From: a virus | DNA length: 54,907 bases | Direction: 5' to 3' (one strand) | Virus record (IMG/VR): IMGVR_UViG_3300014208_000009 | Span: 1 to 54,907 of that record | Shown here: positions 1 to 54,907 of the stretch, in pieces | Layout of the letters: the number at the start of each line of letters is the position of its first letter | How positions within the stretch are numbered: the stretch's first letter is position 1 | Notes under the pieces: generated by a model | The model's database searches: none | Told to the model about the DNA's origin: nothing | What the model saw: only the letters and a program-made list of their open reading frames with translations | Translations under genes and position numbers: made by a program

Positions 1-123
1 ATCCCGGCACGCTTAGATTGCTCGATCTCATTTAGGATTAAATTCTCATCCCTGATGTTTAGTTTGCGCCCGTAGTAGATTTCACAACCCTTATAAATGT
101 CTTTGTAGATCATTTTACCGATG
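1..123. repeat. Terminal direct repeat copy 1 (circular-closure overlap)
   Basis: nt 1..123 are base-for-base identical to nt 54785..54907. The repeat lies inside one continuous minus-strand ORF. Confidence 0.95.
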
Positions 124-1990: not shown

Positions 1991-2070
1991 TCAAATTAAG
2001 ATCGACCAAGATCATAAACCTGAATCCAAAGATACGCTAAATTATTTTGATGTGTCAATAGGGGGTAAAG

Positions 2071-2105
2071 CAAAGGGGCGAACCTGAGAAGATAACGCCC
2101 CTTTG
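2071..2105 (-). promoter_or_regulatory. Stable stem-loop in the leader of ORF 1409..1990
   Basis: Perfect 10-bp inverted repeat caaaggggcg / cgcccctttg with a 15-nt loop. No U-tract follows on either strand. Confidence 0.5.
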
Positions 2106-2139
2106 AACCCTAAAAACAACATCTGAAAGCAAAGTAGGA

Positions 2140-2170
2140 CAAATATAGCAAAGTTTTTTAGAATTGCAAA
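2140..2170 (-). promoter_or_regulatory. Bacteroidota-type promoter (-33 TTTG, -7 TATATTTG)
   Basis: The minus strand reads TTTG-N19-TATATTTG (plus-strand caaa at 2167..2170 and caaatata at 2140..2147). It sits in the 187-nt gap upstream of ORF 1409..1990. Confidence 0.5.
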
Positions 2171-2177
2171 CTAAATT

Positions 2178-2456
2178 TCATCTTTTCCACTTACCACCCC
2201 TGCAACCCGATTTATCTGAACTCCTGACCAGAGCGATGATCGGGCAACCGCAAATTCCGCATTTCTTCCCATGCTTTTTCGACAAGGCAAAATGATTCAG
2301 GTGTTCACAGGTACGACAGGCTTCACCACGTTCAAGTGCTATTTCCTGATTAAGCGGATCGTGAAACGCAATCCTGTACCATGCCGGAACAATGGTTCCG
2401 AAAACGTGCTCAATGGTTAAATCTTCTTTAAGCATATCACAAGTATAAACATCCAT
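2178..2456 (-). CDS. Cys-rich putative zinc-binding protein (92 aa)
   Basis: ATG at 2456, overlapping the TerL 3' end by 20 nt. Contains CRTCEH...KKCGICGCP cysteine clusters. Confidence 0.6.
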   Translation of the reverse strand: MDVYTCDMLKEDLTIEHVFGTIVPAWYRIAFHDPLNQEIALERGEACRTCEHLNHFALSKKHGKKCGICGCPIIALVRSSDKSGCRGGKWKR

Positions 2457-4890
2457 CCGATATAATTGGCAACATTCTAAAGGTAATCATATCCAAAAAG
2501 TCAGGACTACGCCCCAGGTTTTCCCTGATCTCGCTTTTGGGTAGCGTATAGTATTTCATGTCGTTATCTGCGTTCTTGCGCCTTAGCCATTCTAATTCTT
2601 GTGCAATCGTATCACGGTGTTCATCCGGTCGGATATAAATTTTGCCCTGATTCATGTATTCACTAAGCCAATATCCTAATTGACTTTTCAAATTTCCAAA
2701 ATTTTCCTTCTCCGATTCAACATAAACCGGAGGCGAATTGTTTACGATTCCGTTTGCCCCGTCAAGGTAATCAAGAACCCCACCATTATGAACCCAAAAA
2801 CTTCTTTCGTCCGGCATCATTACCATAAAAAGTTTTGATTCACCTGAAATATGTAGGTTAATCACATCACCAAATCGTTCAGACATAGCCCCACCACGAA
2901 TACCAATAGCATGATCTTTATATTCAGCGATTAGAAAACAGTCCGTTGTTCTTGTGATTTCTCTACCATGAATAGTACTTTTGCTTCCTGCTTTGTGTTT
3001 AATCCGTATGGTTGCATATTTTCCGATCTTAAAAATCATTTCCAATAAGTCTTCAGCCAATCCCCGACTTGATGTTATATAGCACCTATTTCCGCAATGG
3101 ATATACCCATCACCTTTTCGGTAGGCATCAAGAAAAGCATCAATGACTTCTTTAGTTCCATTCTTAATCAATTTTGGAACCCGTATATGAATAGCGTCCC
3201 GTTTACCGGGGTAACATTCTGATTCTATAAATTCCCTTATGTTCTTGTTTCCGAATTGAAACATGATTTCACCTGCCTTGCTGATCTTTTCGTATGAACT
3301 AAATCCACAAGCCTTGATTACGTCACGGATTTCCTGAACGTCATCACTTTTTACAGACTGAGTTATACAAATATACTTTTCATCCAAATTTCCTTCTGAA
3401 ACATACCAACCCATGAACCTGGCAAAGTCAATATCGGAAAGATCAACACCGTTCTTTATGATTTGAAATCCTCCATGCGGTTGCTTCTTTAAAGTGTTTT
3501 CCCGTATGAACCTAAAAGGTGTGCCTTCCCACTTTGATTTATTATCAAGAATAATCCATTTCAGTTTTAGGGTATCTTCCCAATTCCGAACAAACGAAGG
3601 ATGGTTTAACCTTGTTCTGGATGGCAACAAATGACCTTCGCTAAATTCGTAGCCGTCTCTGGATTGAAGAATATTTGCTTTTCTGTTTTCGATAGAGATT
3701 ATTTTCTCCGTACAAAGAAAATCATTTTGCTTTGAAAATATCTCGTCACCCGGTTTTAGTTCAGACCCCATGATCCAACCGTTCGGGGTAAATACTTTTG
3801 TTTCAGGTGTTATACAACCTACGCCGTCCTGATCTAAATAGACATTATGGATATGAACCTGATGTCTTTTCATGGCATCTTTTATCATTTCAACCGCTTC
3901 GGGGATTGAGTTTTTATCTTTCGTATAGATATATTCAAGCCGAAGTCCGTTCCAAACCCCAATAACTGTTTTATCCCTTCCTTGACGGGCAATGTCGGCA
4001 GTAATTATTCGTTCTCCACCGGGGACTTGAGTATAAAAACAGTTTTGAATGGCATCGTATTCGATCAGGTTCCAGTCGTCAGTATCGTATTCCCATGATC
4101 CTTCAAGTAATCGTTCCCGGTTTGTTCCGGTCAGTCCTTCAAGATTTTCAAGATAAGACGATTGGGTATATTTGTTGTCTTTGGCAAGGACTTGGATAAA
4201 TTTCTTGTTCGGAGGAAGCGTGCCGTCTTTCCAGGGTTTATAAAAGTCCTGATATAACCATCCTTTTGTCGGGTTACAAGTCATTAACATTTTAGGCACA
4301 AGTCCTTTGGTATAATTCCCACAAGAACACTTCCAGCGACCGTTCTCATCTAAGGGAACGGTTCTTGGTTGGGCGCATTTTGGACAGAAATTGTCCAATT
4401 TGTACCTTATCCTTGACCGGATGATCTCACGGGCTTTGGCTGAAATCTGGCTTGCCTCATCAACCCCCGCTCCGGTTATCTCTAAAGACCCTAATGAATC
4501 GAAGTCGGGATCGGACGGATAAGAAAAAAGGTCTTTCAGAAGAATGATTGACCCCCCGTATTCCTTGTTGAAGGAAATCACATTGCTTTTAGAATTGTAC
4601 CGAAAGTGTGTTTCGGGTTCGATGTGCCATTGTTGACAGACATCAAAAAAGGTAACTAAAGTGGTTTCCTGTAAGGATTTAAGTTTAGACCGACCCATCA
4701 GCCAACGGGTTCCGGGGTAACGAAGACAGGAAATAATCAACCAAGCACACATAGTAAAGCTCTTCGACCCGCCAGCCCCGCCTCCGAATACTAAGTCTGT
4801 GACGATTTCGTCTAACAGGTATTTCATAGCCAACCCCTGTTTTGGATTGGACTTAAAGTCAGCCGTTATGTTGATTGCCTGTGGTTTCAT
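2437..4890 (-). CDS. terL: Terminase large subunit interrupted by an intein (817 aa precursor)
   Basis: P-loop-like VFGGGAGGSKS and Walker-B-like ITGAGVDEAS. Nuclease motifs IITADIARQGRD and YLDQDGVG/GGVLDYL, the second split by a 344-aa insert. Extra Cys4 insert CPKC-x14-CSC at about 4321..4386. Confidence 0.9.
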   Translation of the reverse strand: MKPQAINITADFKSNPKQGLAMKYLLDEIVTDLVFGGGAGGSKSFTMCAWLIISCLRYPGTRWLMGRSKLKSLQETTLVTFFDVCQQWHIEPETHFRYNSKSNVISFNKEYGGSIILLKDLFSYPSDPDFDSLGSLEITGAGVDEASQISAKAREIIRSRIRYKLDNFCPKCAQPRTVPLDENGRWKCSCGNYTKGLVPKMLMTCNPTKGWLYQDFYKPWKDGTLPPNKKFIQVLAKDNKYTQSSYLENLEGLTGTNRERLLEGSWEYDTDDWNLIEYDAIQNCFYTQVPGGERIITADIARQGRDKTVIGVWNGLRLEYIYTKDKNSIPEAVEMIKDAMKRHQVHIHNVYLDQDGVGCITPETKVFTPNGWIMGSELKPGDEIFSKQNDFLCTEKIISIENRKANILQSRDGYEFSEGHLLPSRTRLNHPSFVRNWEDTLKLKWIILDNKSKWEGTPFRFIRENTLKKQPHGGFQIIKNGVDLSDIDFARFMGWYVSEGNLDEKYICITQSVKSDDVQEIRDVIKACGFSSYEKISKAGEIMFQFGNKNIREFIESECYPGKRDAIHIRVPKLIKNGTKEVIDAFLDAYRKGDGYIHCGNRCYITSSRGLAEDLLEMIFKIGKYATIRIKHKAGSKSTIHGREITRTTDCFLIAEYKDHAIGIRGGAMSERFGDVINLHISGESKLFMVMMPDERSFWVHNGGVLDYLDGANGIVNNSPPVYVESEKENFGNLKSQLGYWLSEYMNQGKIYIRPDEHRDTIAQELEWLRRKNADNDMKYYTLPKSEIRENLGRSPDFLDMITFRMLPIISDGCLYL
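2785..3816 (-). mobile_element. Intein with double-motif LAGLIDADG homing endonuclease (TerL aa 359-702)
   Basis: Starts CITPETKVFTPNGW (Hint block A). Contains SEGH (block B-like), FMGWYVSEGNL and FLDAYRKGDGY (two LAGLIDADG motifs). Ends SFWVHN (block G). It sits inside a conserved nuclease motif. The +1 residue is Gly (codon ggt at 2782..2784). Confidence 0.85.
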
Positions 4891-5045
4891 TCATTATACC
4901 AACATACTGTGTAAACAGAATCTTCGCCATAATCACCGTCAAAATCCCATTCATATTTTTTATGGCAATTAGGGCATTCTCCACTAACCCCTTCTTCGAC
5001 TTCAAATTCTGTATCACAAAACAAACATACCCAATTATATTTCAT
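4887..5045 (-). CDS. Small zinc-ribbon protein (52 aa)
   Basis: My own translation: MKYNWVCLFCDTEFEVEEGVSGECPNCHKKYEW... with CxxC-x13-CxxC. It is ATGA-coupled at both ends, to the 5042 stop and to the TerL ATG. It is below the track size cutoff. Confidence 0.55.
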   Translation of the reverse strand: MKYNWVCLFCDTEFEVEEGVSGECPNCHKKYEWDFDGDYGEDSVYTVCWYNE

Positions 5046-6421
5046 TGGAACAACTTTTTTAGGTCAAACTTACTGTTCTCGAAAATACGGATGGCCTTGT
5101 TTGCCAATTCTTCAGTCCGAAAGAGTGGGTAAATGGAATCTCCTGTTACCAGACAGATTTCAAAATAGCCATGCACATAATCATCAACTCCTTTATCTCT
5201 GTTAGGCATGATAGCATAGCCACGATTCCGCAAATCACCACAGTTCAGTTTATAGGCTACTGACTGAAGAAGGCCGTACAAAAGGACTTTATAGGCAATG
5301 GCTTCAGTAGGCATTAGATTTCCTGATATAGTGGCCCATCCACTCAGTTTCATATAGAACCTATTATCCTTTATACAATCTTCTAATGTAAGTTCCTTTT
5401 CGATCTCGGTGATCTTGTACTTTTTGCCATCGGCTTCTACCTGCATGGCTTTCAAATCAAGTTTAATGTTCATATTGATTTTGTTTATAATGTTTCGTAT
5501 TGTTTTTCCCATTTCCGCAGCCGATACGGGTTTAAAGTTAAATCCCATTGAGCCATCTAATGTAACCTTGAGTGTAGGATTGTCAAAACAATTTAAGCAA
5601 CCCTTGTGGTCACAATGTAAATAGTATTCGCAGCCCTTTACGGTTTTCATACCGGGTTTTGGATTATGAAATAGTCCGTAATAAATATTACCCCCAAGTG
5701 GGCTGAAATCAATAGAACTAATCATTTCACCCGGATTACTCGTTACTACACCTCCCGTCTTGAATGCCGGACTATACCAATCCATAAAACAGTCAGGGCT
5801 ACGGGTGGGTGATTGATTTCGGTTGCAAAGGTAGCAATGATATGGACGATTCCGGCAGGAATTAGTAAAGCCACACTTGACCTCATGTATTTCAACTTTC
5901 GGTTCTGTGTCAAACGGAGGATTAAATATAGTACTGCCCGTTGCAATTTCAGGATGCAACGATTCGTACAAATGGTTGATAAGCCGTCTTTGCTTGTGGC
6001 TGAACACAACTTTCGTGTTTAAGTCACCGGATAACTGTTTGATTTTCTTTGCCATCACCCCAGCGGACTTTCCTTCGCCACAACGAGACAACTCCCATAA
6101 CCTGTAAAGATCCACCCTAAGATCATTCTTCTGATCGTTGTGGATTTCAAAACAGGCATTAAAAATATCCCCAACTGTCATTGGAGTACTGATTATTGCA
6201 TCATTCAACAAATACAATATATCATCAATGGATTGAATATAATGCTTATCAAACCATTTCAGTATGGGGATGTAGTCAATCGGTGGAACACACCATGCCG
6301 TACAATGCTCTAACACATTTAGTCCCTGACCCCCGAAAGCGTCAAACACCCTATCTACCTCGTTCTTTGAATAAAGTGTTGTAGTATAAGCCGTTCTGCG
6401 TTGTTCGTCTATACTTTTCAT
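5042..6421 (-). CDS. Hypothetical Cys/His-rich protein (~459 aa from the first ATG)
   Basis: The track start at 6448 is TTG. The first ATG (MKSIDEQ) is at 6421. It is translationally coupled to the zinc-ribbon ORF and TerL. No family recognised. Confidence 0.7.
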   Translation of the reverse strand: MKSIDEQRRTAYTTTLYSKNEVDRVFDAFGGQGLNVLEHCTAWCVPPIDYIPILKWFDKHYIQSIDDILYLLNDAIISTPMTVGDIFNACFEIHNDQKNDLRVDLYRLWELSRCGEGKSAGVMAKKIKQLSGDLNTKVVFSHKQRRLINHLYESLHPEIATGSTIFNPPFDTEPKVEIHEVKCGFTNSCRNRPYHCYLCNRNQSPTRSPDCFMDWYSPAFKTGGVVTSNPGEMISSIDFSPLGGNIYYGLFHNPKPGMKTVKGCEYYLHCDHKGCLNCFDNPTLKVTLDGSMGFNFKPVSAAEMGKTIRNIINKINMNIKLDLKAMQVEADGKKYKITEIEKELTLEDCIKDNRFYMKLSGWATISGNLMPTEAIAYKVLLYGLLQSVAYKLNCGDLRNRGYAIMPNRDKGVDDYVHGYFEICLVTGDSIYPLFRTEELANKAIRIFENSKFDLKKLFQ

Positions 6422-9806: not shown

Positions 9807-10046
9807 TTACAGGATTACTGTGTGTATTCTTCTCTCAACTGCTCCCGTATTATGGTAGTTAATTACAAGTTCGGTTTCTTTGATCCGGATAATGTCAATA
9901 GTTCCTCCGGTTTGCATTGCCCTTACTTCAGCGTCTTGTTTCTTGCTATTGAAGTATTTTTCCAAGTTCCTCACACCTTTAATCATATAGGTGTTTTTGC
10001 GGAGTTCCCCGTTGTGTCGGTAAAATGTGTTAACTTCTACTTTCAT
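9807..10046 (-). CDS. Hypothetical protein (79 aa)
   Basis: ATG start, followed by a terminator. Confidence 0.55.
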   Translation of the reverse strand: MKVEVNTFYRHNGELRKNTYMIKGVRNLEKYFNSKKQDAEVRAMQTGGTIDIIRIKETELVINYHNTGAVERRIHTVIL

Positions 10047-10272
10047 GGCCTTAGTGTGAAAAATACGCTGTCAGAATCATGCCGATTACAAAGATTACTA
10101 CCCAGAGGGTAATCCAAAGGTTACTGTTTTTAGCTTTCATTTGTTTTGATTTTAAGTTCTGCTGTTACTATCATTATTATTCCGATCAAGATACCTGTTA
10201 AGGTTACTGCCGGGGTTTCGATCATTGAACACACGACAATGATTACCAGTCCTACTATGGTTATTGCTGTTT

Positions 10273-10506
10273 TCACCACGTTATCCTCCCGGCTAAATTA
10301 TAAGTCTTGTAAATGTCACGGGTAACATTATTGATGTTAACACGGGAACCAAATTTGCCACGATTCCTGCATTGTATCTCAGCAATTACCTGACCAACTG
10401 ATGCGAATTGCCCATCGTACATTGATGCAACCAGCGTACCGTCTTTTTTAGTCAGGCTTGCGCTAATTGTGTCCGACTCTTTGATAACCATTCTTCTATT
10501 TTTCAT
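10273..10506 (-). CDS. Hypothetical protein (77 aa)
   Basis: ATG start on the coding strand. Confidence 0.55.
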   Translation of the reverse strand: MKNRRMVIKESDTISASLTKKDGTLVASMYDGQFASVGQVIAEIQCRNRGKFGSRVNINNVTRDIYKTYNLAGRITW

Positions 10507-10632
10507 TTTGATATTGTTTTATTCGTTTTTTACTTTCTTCATAAACTTCATTCGAGAACTTTGTCCGGTCTATCTTTGACCTCTTTTCGTAATTTTCGAC
10601 AAATAGGCAGAGTTCGAGATATTGGTCTTCAG

Positions 10633-11472
10633 TCATTCCATCTGATTGATAAGGTTTAAAACTTCCTTGCGTTCAAAAATATGGCAACCAACACGGATAA
10701 CTTTATTGGTCACTTCTTTAATTTCAAATTTGCCACAATGACGGCCTAAAATATCCTTTCCTGACTGAAGCATACACCACAATATTTTTACGGGCCTTAT
10801 GTCAACCCTTACGCCTTGAGACGTTTCAACCATCCCATCGGTCAACCTTAACAAGTCGAACGGAAAATAATAATTAGAAAACCGTTGGCCGTTCCTGAAA
10901 TTGACTATTTCTTTTTTTGCCTTTGCCTTGTTTTTTCGTGCCTGAGCCTGTTTTTCCTTGCGTTCCCGTTCGGCCATATCGGCGTAATATTTTTCAACAT
11001 CAAAAGTATCAGGATCAATAAGTGATTCAGGGACGGGAATATCAAACAGGTCACAATATCTTTGCAGTTCGAAAACTGCTTTTTGTGCATGAGCGTGATA
11101 TTCCTGTTTTCTGGATCTTGCCTTGTTTTCCAGTTCCTTTGCCAAAACAAGCCAGTTTGCAAAATATTCAATATTCTTTTTATGAGTTTCGGGCCAGTTG
11201 TCGGGCATGGCAATAACATTGATAATATTACCATAGTCCGGTATTGCCCGTTTTACATATCTCTGATGTCTTGAGGTTGAATTACTGTATGTCCGGTCAT
11301 TCCAGAAGTAATATAACTGGCCTTTCACGGTCATTTTTTTGCAGATCGGAAAATGACTGCCGTAACTGTAAATTGTGTCGCCCTCAAAATAAAAAGAGGA
11401 GGCACATTTTCCAGATTCAGATTCATTATAGACCCAAGCGTGGGCCAGGTCTCTTGTATTGTAACGTCTCAT
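10633..11472 (-). CDS. Hypothetical protein (279 aa) with a Lys/Glu-rich central linker
   Basis: ATG at 11472. The N-terminus is DLAHAWVYNE...IYSYGSHFPI. No function recognised. Confidence 0.7.
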   Translation of the reverse strand: MRRYNTRDLAHAWVYNESESGKCASSFYFEGDTIYSYGSHFPICKKMTVKGQLYYFWNDRTYSNSTSRHQRYVKRAIPDYGNIINVIAMPDNWPETHKKNIEYFANWLVLAKELENKARSRKQEYHAHAQKAVFELQRYCDLFDIPVPESLIDPDTFDVEKYYADMAERERKEKQAQARKNKAKAKKEIVNFRNGQRFSNYYFPFDLLRLTDGMVETSQGVRVDIRPVKILWCMLQSGKDILGRHCGKFEIKEVTNKVIRVGCHIFERKEVLNLINQME

Positions 11473-11843
11473 GATGTTGTTAATTTAGTGATTTTAAATG
11501 ATTTACGCAATAGGGTTACATTTTTTTCCGTGCTTTTTCGATCAACTTCTGAATGTCGCAAGTCTTTTCAGCCGGACACGAAAAGCAACTAACTTGGTAA
11601 CGTTCATGCCTGCATCTTGAGGCTCTTTTGCACTGATAATCGAATGATCTGCGTGCTTTTTCTATTGTTTTCATGTTACCTCAAATTTTGCGATTGATAG
11701 GAAAACTGGTAGTCAGTCAATGAGTCCTCAAGAAAAAATTGGCTCAAAGATCGGATTTCACGTTTTTTGTTGTTTGCTTTTTTGGCCTTGTCGGTCTGCT
11801 GTTGTTTTTTGGTTGTTGTTTTCATGATGTTAAATTGAATTAA

Positions 11844-12119
11844 TTAATAGACCTCGAGAATACACATAGTTCCGCCGCCCGATGGATGTTGTACCTTAAC
11901 TGGCATAACCTGAATAATGTCGTTATCCAAAAGTATCTCATACGGCGAGCGAGGCCCTTCAACCCGTGAGCCAACTAATACGTTACCACATTTCTTTAGG
12001 TCAGAAACAGAGGCAGGCCGATTAGTGTCACTATCATCGTAAGTAATGATCTGACGGCCAGTTTCCCACAATTCGCTGATTGTTGCTTTCATTGATTTTG
12101 TTTTAGTTTTTAATTGCAT
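11844..12119 (-). CDS. Hypothetical protein (91 aa)
   Basis: ATG at 12119; first ORF downstream of the 12.1-12.65 kb non-coding region. Confidence 0.55.
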   Translation of the reverse strand: MQLKTKTKSMKATISELWETGRQIITYDDSDTNRPASVSDLKKCGNVLVGSRVEGPRSPYEILLDNDIIQVMPVKVQHPSGGGTMCILEVY

Positions 12120-54461: not shown

Positions 54462-54907
54462 TTTTGATTTTGTTAAACTGTTCTTTATTGTATTTGTCTA
54501 ATACTTTTTTGATGCTTGCGATTCGTTTTTGATATTTTTCGAGTGCCTTGTATAACATGATCGGGCCATTTTCAAGTTCAAACCGATCAACGTAATCATC
54601 AAAGTTCATTTTATAACACTTCATCTCACCGCTTGCAAACTCCGAAGCAAGGACTTCGTCTAAGGAATAAGTCGCAAGAGGTTCTAAGTCAAGTAACATA
54701 AAGCCCCGTTCCATGTCCTGTCTTGAGTTACGATTTCGTGTAGCGATCAATTCTTGAAGAAGCGTCCGTATATAAGAAATAGGCATCCCGGCACGCTTAG
54801 ATTGCTCGATCTCATTTAGGATTAAATTCTCATCCCTGATGTTTAGTTTGCGCCCGTAGTAGATTTCACAACCCTTATAAATGTCTTTGTAGATCATTTT
54901 ACCGATG
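54379..54907 (-). CDS. Portal protein candidate, C-terminal part (same ORF as 1..1409)
   Basis: The frame is open to the right edge. nt 54785..54907 duplicate nt 1..123, so the reading frame joins seamlessly. Confidence 0.6.
   Translation of the reverse strand, partial: IGKMIYKDIYKGCEIYYGRKLNIRDENLILNEIEQSKRAGMPISYIRTLLQELIATRNRNSRQDMERGFMLLDLEPLATYSLDEVLASEFASGEMKCYKMNFDDYVDRFELENGPIMLYKALEKYQKRIASIKKVLDKYNKEQFNKIKNDTSNQDRTDLKGGNPEDDAVQGTGLE
54785..54907. repeat. Terminal direct repeat copy 2
   Basis: Identical to nt 1..123. Confidence 0.95.

Follow-up and report, generated by a model that had tools for sequence, protein, structure and literature searches.

The window analysed here is the whole stretch of 54,907 nucleotides, which holds a complete phage genome of ~54.8 kb (123-bp terminal overlap). 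On its minus strand, a single ORF of 817 residues (93.7 kDa) encodes a precursor of the terminase large subunit (TerL) that carries an intein within its nuclease domain. A tblastn search of the extein against the whole window found no second TerL and no back-up nuclease. The features of the locus are given below; the conservation counts refer to the 41 full-length members of the intein family described further on.

2437..4890, minus strand: TerL precursor ORF, the sole terminase large subunit in the window
3817..4890, minus strand: N-extein, 358 aa, ATPase domain and first half of the RNase-H-like nuclease domain, ending ...YLDQDGVG (Pfam Terminase_3, Terminase_6N)
4759..4785, minus strand: Walker A / P-loop GGGAGGSKS (G41, K43 and S44 invariant in the homologue alignment)
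3994..3996, minus strand: D299, first nuclease acidic residue, in the ITADIARQG motif (D299, A301, R302 and G304 invariant)
3832..3834, minus strand: D353, catalytic Asp, equivalent to Sf6 gp2 D296 (profile alignment to 4idh)
2785..3816, minus strand: intein, 344 aa, 39.5 kDa, Hint domain split by a LAGLIDADG homing endonuclease (precursor residues 359-702)
3814..3816, minus strand: block A Cys1 (tgt), 41/41 members; TGT in 10/10 alleles with DNA
3631..3642, minus strand: block B S-E-G-H (TxxH equivalent), His 40/41; first position S 27, A 8, T 6
3391..3417, minus strand: LAGLIDADG motif 1 FMGWYVSEG with catalytic Glu (40/41); S-E-G kept in family and outgroup
3106..3135, minus strand: LAGLIDADG motif 2 FLDAYRKGDG with catalytic Asp; G-D-G, Asp 41/41; PF14528
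2821..2871, minus strand: block F GDVINLHISGESKLFMV; F:4 is Asn here and is unconserved in the family
2785..2802, minus strand: block G SFWVHN, penultimate His (39/41) and terminal Asn (aat 2785..2787; 41/41)
2782..2784, minus strand: +1 residue Gly (ggt), the non-nucleophilic first C-extein residue, by direct codon reading
2440..2784, minus strand: C-extein, 115 aa, 13.4 kDa, second nuclease half, starting GGVLDYL (ORF translation, profile alignment)
2491..2508, minus strand: C-extein motif SPDFLD, which aligns to S-P-N441-L-A-D444 of Sf6 gp2 (metal ligands; PMC4678813)
2310..4075, no strand assigned: mosaic segment comprising the nuclease domain and intein, diverged from the intein-less relative L004 (boundaries approximate)

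The exteins together have the architecture of a TerL, with an N-terminal P-loop ATPase and a C-terminal RNase-H-like nuclease with an acidic triad. The alignment of D353 with Sf6 gp2 D296, a metal B ligand (PMC4678813), takes account of a 20-residue tag offset in 4idh that was verified via N441/D444; D299 is probably the equivalent of Sf6 D244. The Sf6 gp2 match came from a profile search; the spliced extein on its own as query against the PDB gave weak zinc-ribbon matches only, and Pfam did not recover a nuclease-domain family on it. For an intein-less homologue, the AF2 model matched Sf6 gp2 by Foldseek (4iei, E 9e-22). Nuclease catalytic residues are found in both exteins, and the profile alignment to Sf6 gp2 shows that an assembled nuclease site would require both of them. 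The calculated masses are 54.2 kDa for ligated TerL, 40.8 kDa for the N-extein and 39.5 kDa for the free intein, and the junction peptide calculated for ligated TerL is HQVHIHNVYLDQDGVGGGVLDYLDGANGIVNNSPPVYVESEK (4519.8 Da).

The insertion point lies 5 residues downstream of D353, within the nuclease active-site loop. The original prediction had described a 344-residue, Cys-initial insert with two LAGLIDADG motifs and an SFWVHN end, and ORF reading confirmed this exactly (N-terminus CITPETKVFTPNGW). Its further claim, that excision restores the nuclease motif YLDQDGVG-GGVLDYL, also holds, as the restored motif matches that of 99 intein-less homologues (D-x-D-G-(V/I)-G-G-G-V-x-D, with G in 92, S in 4 and A in 3 at the +1-equivalent position). 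The intein is absent from ~110 of the 120 best TerL homologues. It matches PF14528 (E 1e-6) and, by sequence, the V-ATPase inteins and PI-PkoII in the PDB. In a Foldseek search with the AF2 precursor model, which was used for fold and secondary structure only and not for junction distances, the TliVMA intein (7qsu) was the top match (E 4e-16), and the PI-SceI and I-DmoI folds were also recovered. In-frame insertion, Cys1, the block-B His and the C-terminal His-Asn are those of a class 1 intein, and the two LAGLIDADG helices each end in a catalytic acidic residue, so that the homing endonuclease is apparently intact, judging from its motifs. By contrast, the first C-extein residue, which must be Cys, Ser or Thr in class 1 (PMC4031507), is Gly. 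The branched-intermediate step of class 1 splicing is impossible with Gly at this position, which implies either an unusual rejoining chemistry or a TerL left in pieces.

An exhaustive HMMER search, together with IMG/VR and GTDB, gave ~45 diverged members at the identical TerL site, with 29-63% pairwise identity. This set comprises 41 full-length representatives (mostly representatives of 50%-identity clusters), 6 IMG/VR loci, some of which coincide with these representatives, and 1 GTDB locus, a single MAG contig being the only carrier found in GTDB genomes. In cultured phages, tblastn of the intein against 50,697 GenBank phage records gave no match at 1e-10. The insertion site and the HN/GG junction (the slash marks the splice point) are common to the family, the same-site alleles sharing HN/G, and the G/GG junction is exact, with no indels in any member. 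The +1 residue is G in 37 of the 41 representatives, E in 2, C in 1 and W in 1, whereas all 74 related inteins at other sites, used as outgroup controls, have Cys, Ser or Thr at this position. The junction is not uniform, as two members read Phe-Asn/Glu. Block F:4 is N in 19, D in 6, Q in 5, E in 4 and Y in 3 members of the family (outgroup: C 36, D 11). Judged from the alignment, the recurrence of the HN/G junction in ~45 diverged alleles is far beyond what chance would produce. Only one pair of alleles, L015 and L016, is close enough for a dN/dS comparison (7 codons differ), all other pairs being saturated.

Gly +1 is the native extein residue, and intein-less alleles likewise carry Gly at the equivalent position. 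It is kept in ~90% of members though Ser and Cys are one substitution away from GGT, and Ser is tolerated at the equivalent position in intein-less TerLs. One member, the nested P0151, has Cys at +1 where its intein-less relatives have Ala, and a nucleophile may thus still be an advantage. The closest relative (P0121, 44% identity) is a free-standing endonuclease in which both LAGLIDADG catalytic motifs persist but Cys1, the block-B His and the terminal HN are gone, which indicates that the splicing residues decay once they are not needed.

The family appears to be horizontally mobile in a homing-like manner, as suggested by its sporadic distribution and by the mosaic flank of the window intein. 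The intein-less relative L004 is otherwise ~85% identical to the window phage. Between the two, protein identity is 88-100% in the TerL ATPase domain and 48-80% in the nuclease domain around the intein, and the flanking genes return to ~84% nucleotide identity. The intein-less target in L004 reads GATGGNGTNGGN before and GGNGGNGT after the insertion point. A Por_Secre_tail gene in L004 hints at a host among the Bacteroidota.

Alternative boundaries were examined, since the true C-terminal junction might have lain elsewhere at a Ser, Thr or Cys; none fits. A shift by one residue leaves Gly at +1, and a W/T junction offers no cyclisable C-terminal residue, the window having Val there. Cys +9 is present in some alleles and absent from the window, and Thr +4 (GGVTD) is Leu in the window. 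Removal at the RNA level was also rejected, with no Rfam intron match across 2000..5200 and the Hint blocks in frame.

The original prediction had given three accounts of the Gly codon. The one in which agt or tgt, a single nucleotide away, was misread through an error of consensus or assembly is refuted, because Gly +1 is found family-wide with different synonymous codons in independent metagenomes: GGT, GGA or GGC was read in 17 loci with DNA, from different samples and assemblers. In addition, the identical precursor protein occurs on four contigs, including the independent Logan assembly L091 in which GGT is found again, and the intein-less alleles have Gly as well. We regard an error as next to impossible. 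The second account, in which the intein is dead for splicing and the phage copy defective, draws on the block that Gly +1 imposes on canonical chemistry (PMC4031507). It is nevertheless very unlikely, because the splicing residues are conserved, TerL is encoded only once in a complete genome, and P0121 has decayed. The genome has moreover been assembled independently more than once, and the ~45 diverged alleles have intact ORFs that lie within the usual modules of TerS, portal, protease and capsid genes, with the S-E-G and G-D-G endonuclease motifs intact across the family. The anatomy that had been proposed, a class-1-like intein with these junctions, this motif and Gly +1, stands.

Among the remaining readings, we rank first, with a probability of about 0.55, one that was absent from those earlier options: that this is a genuine, evolutionarily maintained family of mobile LAGLIDADG inteins in the TerL nuclease loop which would splice by direct aminolysis from Gly. 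An N-to-S acyl shift at Gly358-Cys359 would yield a thioester. Asn702 would then cyclise with the help of His701, without waiting for a branched intermediate, freeing the intein and exposing the alpha-amine of Gly703. This amine would be unhindered, and the Hint fold and the two halves of the nuclease domain would hold it beside the Gly358 thioester. Its direct attack on the thioester (S-to-N acyl transfer) would produce the DGVG-GGV loop and a 54-kDa TerL; that this last step occurs, and with useful yield, we infer. The alignment shows the residues that would serve the first two steps to be conserved family-wide, with no conserved nucleophile at or near +1. The penultimate His (Gly in the sister inteins described below), the T/V-H-N ending and the relaxed F:4 position point towards a C-terminal cleavage that would be uncoupled and fast. 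The window intein itself ends in VHN, not THN, and the THN and F-block result with gp41-1 provides a comparison for such changes in C-terminal cleavage (PMC12245125). The same ligation, in which the freed alpha-amine attacks the thioester, has been proposed for type A bacterial intein-like (BIL) domains, although these yield mainly cleaved products (PMC4031507; PMC7664689).

Conservation of sequence alone is compatible with ligation and with double cleavage alike. Canonical inteins with a mutated +1 residue usually cleave and do not splice. Cleavage without ligation, the remaining option of the original prediction, remains a live rival, to which we give a minor but real share of the probability: the thioester would be hydrolysed, Asn would cyclise, and the 41-kDa and 13-kDa fragments would associate non-covalently as a working nuclease. 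This needs the very same conserved residues and agrees with the main behaviour of BIL domains. Since the two halves make up a single compact RNase-H-like domain, the fragments could stay folded together. However, the break would fall five residues from a metal-binding Asp, at a helix N-cap; homologue searches found no naturally split TerL at this site; and the split enzyme would have to function immediately after homing into intein-less phages. The exact G/GG junction, free of indels in all members, also speaks against this rival, even if recurrent homing could explain it too. It is improbable, to a greater degree, that the intein is tolerated as a permanent insertion, with TerL working around a 40-kDa loop domain or with only its ATPase needed. 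The N and C termini of Hint are close together, a loop insertion can be tolerated, and the AF2 precursor model retains the flanking strand and helix. Such tolerance nonetheless leaves unexplained the invariant Cys1 and Asn and the near-invariant block-B and penultimate His at 29-63% identity, as well as the loss of all splicing residues in the free-standing derivative P0121, and the position is that of an active-site loop.

Reviews build Cys, Ser or Thr at +1 into the definition of an intein and regard BILs as curiosities of bacterial surface proteins that mostly cleave themselves (PMC4031507; PMC7664689). Here, a large, diverged family of apparently mobile inteins, inserted in a phage enzyme that is essential, keeps the other splicing residues and not the +1 nucleophile. 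The broader proposition, that natural endonuclease-bearing inteins splice an essential enzyme without a C-extein side-chain nucleophile and would in effect form a fourth mechanistic class, we hold to be evenly balanced. In the literature searched, mainly without subscription papers, we found no inteins with Gly at +1, no fourth intein class and no inteins in a terminase nuclease domain. If ligation is true, a new entry joins the mechanistic classification of inteins, and the family offers a natural scaffold for scarless Gly-Gly splicing without the Cys, Ser or Thr scar that has been a long-standing practical limit. If there is cleavage only, the nuclease domain of the terminase is severed into two parts in a way that phages either tolerate or exploit, and this would likewise be new. 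Comparators are available within the family: P0151 has Cys +1, P0205 has Ser +1 with the site unchanged, and P0121 is free-standing and degenerate.

Among known systems, the class 1 LAGLIDADG inteins (TliVMA/PhoVMA 7qsu/7qss/7qst, PI-SceI, PI-PkoII) give the best matches in sequence and fold. They share with the window intein an in-frame placement at a catalytic motif that is conserved in an essential enzyme, along with Cys1, the block-B (S/T)xxH, block F, a C-terminal His-Asn and an endonuclease nested in Hint, and the sporadic distribution with a mosaic flank is likewise class 1-like. The window intein differs from them by its Gly +1 and by a block F:4 that is unconserved in its family. Type A BIL domains (Amitai 2003; Dassa 2004; Aranko 2013, reviewed in PMC4031507 and PMC7664689) offer another comparison. 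BILs are small, lack homing endonucleases, occupy variable regions of non-essential, often secreted bacterial proteins and are not homing elements. By contrast, the window intein has 344 residues with two LAGLIDADG motifs, interrupts the active-site loop of TerL, the product of an essential phage gene, with a mosaic flank, and belongs to a family that branches among canonical inteins, its nearest relatives; Pfam gave neither a Hint_2 nor a BIL-type match for the window precursor. What type A BIL domains have in common with it is the Hint domain, the N-terminal Cys, the C-terminal His-Asn and the absence of a +1 nucleophile (PMC4031507). Class 3 inteins are defined by a non-nucleophilic residue 1 and a Trp/Cys/Thr (WCT) triplet (PMC2807308), whereas the window intein has Cys1 and Asn at F:4, and F:4 is not Cys in its family.

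Sister TerL inteins fall within a wider family that also includes the window intein (E 1e-12 to 1e-29). Two of them, P0205 and P0206, occupy the same loop as the window intein (DDIGVG/C...GN/SGVTD), and others lie in the first nuclease Asp motif (DVARFG/C...GN/SD) or in Walker B (VVDEA/C...GN/SG). In contrast to the window family, all 47 have Ser, Cys or Thr at +1, the penultimate residue is mostly Gly and F:4 is Cys or Asp. Mycobacteriophage inteins are also sited in the phage large terminase; some have an active homing endonuclease, and Kelley et al. 2016 showed their splicing with an MBP-intein-GFP reporter (PMC5050341). The seven sites described for them are confined to the ATPase domain, with no report of one that lacks the C-extein nucleophile (PMC5050341), whereas the window intein is sited in the nuclease domain.

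The insert lies in the TerL precursor, as follows.

2437..4890, minus strand: TerL precursor ORF, 817 aa
2785..3816, minus strand: intein insert, residues 359-702
3814..3816, minus strand: tgt codon of the intein Cys1, which opens CITPETKVFTPNGW
2782..2784, minus strand: ggt codon of the Gly at +1 (first C-extein residue), directly after the intein

Direct reading of the sequence confirmed every detail of the original prediction on the insert, its Cys start, LAGLIDADG motifs, SFWVHN end and Gly +1. Pfam assigned the N-terminal part of the ORF to terminase large-subunit ATPase families and its middle to a LAGLIDADG domain; the intein further carries a block-B S-E-G-H, the LAGLIDADG motifs FMGWYVSEG and FLDAYRKGDG, and block F. 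In sequence searches it matched the V-ATPase inteins 7qsu/7qss and PI-PkoII, solved inteins that bear an endonuclease, and when the precursor as modelled by AlphaFold (pLDDT 77) was compared by Foldseek, the TliVMA intein 7qsu ranked first (E 4e-16), ahead of terminases, PI-SceI and I-DmoI. Removal of the insert as an intron is unsupported, because no Rfam family was matched in the TerL region.

The closest TerL homologues are mostly intein-less proteins of about 470 aa. Across 99 intein-less TerLs the motif is D-x-D-G-(V/I)-G-G-G-V-x-D, with 92 Gly, 4 Ser and 3 Ala at the site that corresponds to +1. An intein-less-TerL profile matched the terminase Sf6 gp2 and aligned the first Asp of this motif (window D353) with gp2 D296, the 20-residue tag offset being checked through S-P-N441-L-A-D444 against SPDFLD of the window C-extein. 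In the Sf6 gp2 nuclease, D296, D244 and D444 form the metal-binding triad (PMC4678813). P0002, an intein-less relative modelled with confidence by AlphaFold (pLDDT 88), is terminase-like, with Sf6 gp2 as best match (E 9e-22), and in its model the insertion point falls between a strand and a helix N-cap. From this alignment and this model, the intein cuts through the active site of the nuclease, leaving catalytic residues in both exteins.

Nine other intein-bearing TerLs from the homologue search share only 37-44% full-length identity with the window protein, and all nine read DGVG|C...HN|GG(V/I), where the bar marks the junction, with GGT, GGA or GGC as +1 codon. Searched exhaustively by HMMER against 1.84 billion representatives, the window intein gave 35 matches below 1e-30, and junction calling with the family HMM yielded 41 full-length members of what we call the Gly family. 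Cys1 and the terminal Asn are invariant among them (41/41 each), the block-B His is kept in 40, the penultimate His in 39 and Gly at -1 (last N-extein residue) in 40; the +1 residue is Gly in 37, Glu in 2, Cys in 1 and Trp in 1. The protein with Trp at +1 has Trp at the majority of its conserved Gly positions, and this residue is probably a TGA codon (Gly in code 25) misread. Six further loci in IMG/VR and one in GTDB, some coinciding with HMMER representatives, all read HN|GG, and the window TerL protein was found on four contigs, among them an independent Logan assembly, again with GGT. That the Gly is a sequencing, consensus or assembly error, as had been considered, is contradicted by these family data: Gly throughout diverged alleles, its varied codons and the independent assembly rule this out, and we give it practically no credence. 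Nor is there support for a true C-terminal junction elsewhere at a Ser, Thr or Cys; the other nine intein-bearing TerLs likewise read HN|GG.

Some features of individual members are recorded here. The Cys1 codon is TGT in 10/10 alleles of one DNA-level comparison (window 3814..3816, L001-L010) while neighbouring codons vary freely, a uniformity that could reflect codon bias or a homing-site constraint. In family members P0140 and P0149 the majority of conserved Gly are replaced by Trp (P0140: G 1.1%, W 8.1%); these most likely come from phages with TGA = Gly (code 25), the genes having been translated under code 4, and the phage hosts would then most likely be Gracilibacteria or Absconditabacteria. 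Some TerLs appear to contain a second, upstream intein, confirmed by an intein-splicing-domain match in P0126 and apparently present in P0149, as judged from upstream homing-endonuclease matches.

The matches ranking further away in these searches are inteins inserted elsewhere, many of them likewise in TerL, and the +1 residue is Ser, Cys or Thr in 74/74 callable cases. Those in TerL interrupt the first nuclease Asp motif or Walker B or, in P0205/P0206, the same loop as in the window. Related canonical inteins were seen at three or more other TerL hot spots:

DVARFG|SD, first nuclease Asp motif
VVDEA|SG, Walker B
QG(V/F)H|S(D/E)N, upstream of Walker B

The Gly family is a single clade in a neighbour-joining tree, and the Cys and Glu variants branch from within it: P0151 reads HN|Cys where intein-less relatives carry Ala, and P0132 and P0144 read Phe-Asn|Glu, the penultimate His being changed as well as the Gly. 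At 44% identity, a free-standing ORF is the nearest relative of the window intein:

L092 82..1137: LAGLIDADG endonuclease ORF P0121, 351 aa

Both LAGLIDADG catalytic motifs are kept in P0121, but Cys1, the block-B His and the terminal His-Asn are gone; by these residues it is a stand-alone homing endonuclease derived from an intein. Splicing residues therefore decay where autoprocessing is not needed, and the fact that copies embedded in TerL keep them almost perfectly argues for selection on thioester formation and on Asn cyclisation.

The conserved Cys1, block-B His and His-Asn make an N-S acyl shift and a cyclisation of Asn available to the window intein; transesterification is not available. 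Bacterial intein-like (BIL) domains also lack a +1 nucleophile; those of type A, with His-Asn at their end, are described as able to join their flanks when the amine freed in Asn cyclisation attacks the thioester, cleavage products dominating over ligation (PMC4031507, PMC7664689). We propose, on three pointers that fall short of proof, that the window intein ligates by this route: an N-S acyl shift at Cys1 would form a thioester, Asn cyclisation would free the Gly +1 amine, and this amine would attack the thioester and join the exteins. By chemical reasoning, the Gly|Gly junction, in which acyl donor and amine are hindered as little as possible, points to aminolysis. The family-specific residues point the same way: the penultimate position is His (39/41) versus Gly in 41/47 canonical sisters, the -3 residue is T/V/S, unlike in the sisters, and block F:4 is N (19), D (6), Q (5), E (4) or Y (3), versus C (36) or D (11). 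In gp41-1, a THN motif with loss of the block-F Asp gives fast, +1-independent C-terminal cleavage (PMC12245125). Lastly, a nucleophile is one mutation away and tolerated by TerL (Ser in some intein-less alleles, Cys in P0151), yet about 90% of members keep Gly, a retention that would favour ligation by aminolysis. Counting against the proposal, the Cys of P0151 may mean that a nucleophile is still helpful, and no cultured phage with a Gly-family intein was found in GenBank phage records.

The main alternative is double cleavage without ligation. The same residue conservation fits it, and the cleavage-only option of the original prediction is to this extent consistent with the data; we nevertheless rank it below ligation and consider it unlikely. 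An insertion tolerated and left unprocessed in TerL is distinctly less probable, as it leaves the conserved splicing chemistry unexplained. A splicing-dead intein in a defective phage, also suggested originally, is contradicted by the Gly-family data and hardly credible. As a whole, the original interpretation is supported in part. Ligation by the type A BIL route remains our proposal.

As its first and last 123 bases are identical (1..123 and 54785..54907), the window is a complete phage genome of ~54.8 kb, circularly closed or terminally redundant. It holds a single TerL, and no second nuclease candidate was found within it; other genes encode a replicative helicase, a Sak4-like protein and virion proteins, and all ORFs of at least 150 aa are on the minus strand. 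Homologous alleles have genes for small terminase, portal, protease and capsid proteins as neighbours; such gene settings and the complete genome count as signs of a working element. In the window itself no small terminase could be recognised. Two Cys-rich ORFs overlap the ends of TerL, and its ATPase domain carries an insertion:

4887..5045, minus strand: 52-aa Cys-rich ORF with two CxxC pairs, overlapping the TerL start
2178..2456, minus strand: 92-aa Cys-rich ORF with CRTC...CGICGC, overlapping the TerL stop, without a PHROG match
4318..4386, minus strand: zinc-ribbon-like CPKC...CSCG insertion, TerL residues 169-191

This insertion has weak similarity to ribosomal zinc-ribbon proteins; it is present in close intein-less relatives (consensus of alignment A1) and not in the consensus of the ten intein-bearing TerLs (A2).

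L004, an intein-less relative of the window phage, is 84-89% identical to it in DNA over matching regions. The TerL ATPase domains share 88-100% protein identity, which falls to 48-80% (57-76% in DNA) from residue ~272 to the gene end and returns to about 84% just downstream. The mosaic patch is the TerL nuclease domain (window ~2310..4075, L004 ~9950..11850, DNA ~60% identical). Such a flank is the pattern expected if the intein came with nuclease-domain flanks, which supports mobility, short of proof.

In architecture and ancestry the window intein is a class 1 LAGLIDADG intein, set apart from the others by its +1 residue. It would share its chemistry with type A BILs and differs from them in its endonuclease, its essential conserved site and its canonical nearest relatives. 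A literature search of incomplete coverage found neither an intein with Gly at +1 nor a fourth intein class. Among TerL inteins, those described to date from mycobacteriophages are all in the ATPase domain (PMC5050341), whereas that of the window lies in the nuclease domain.
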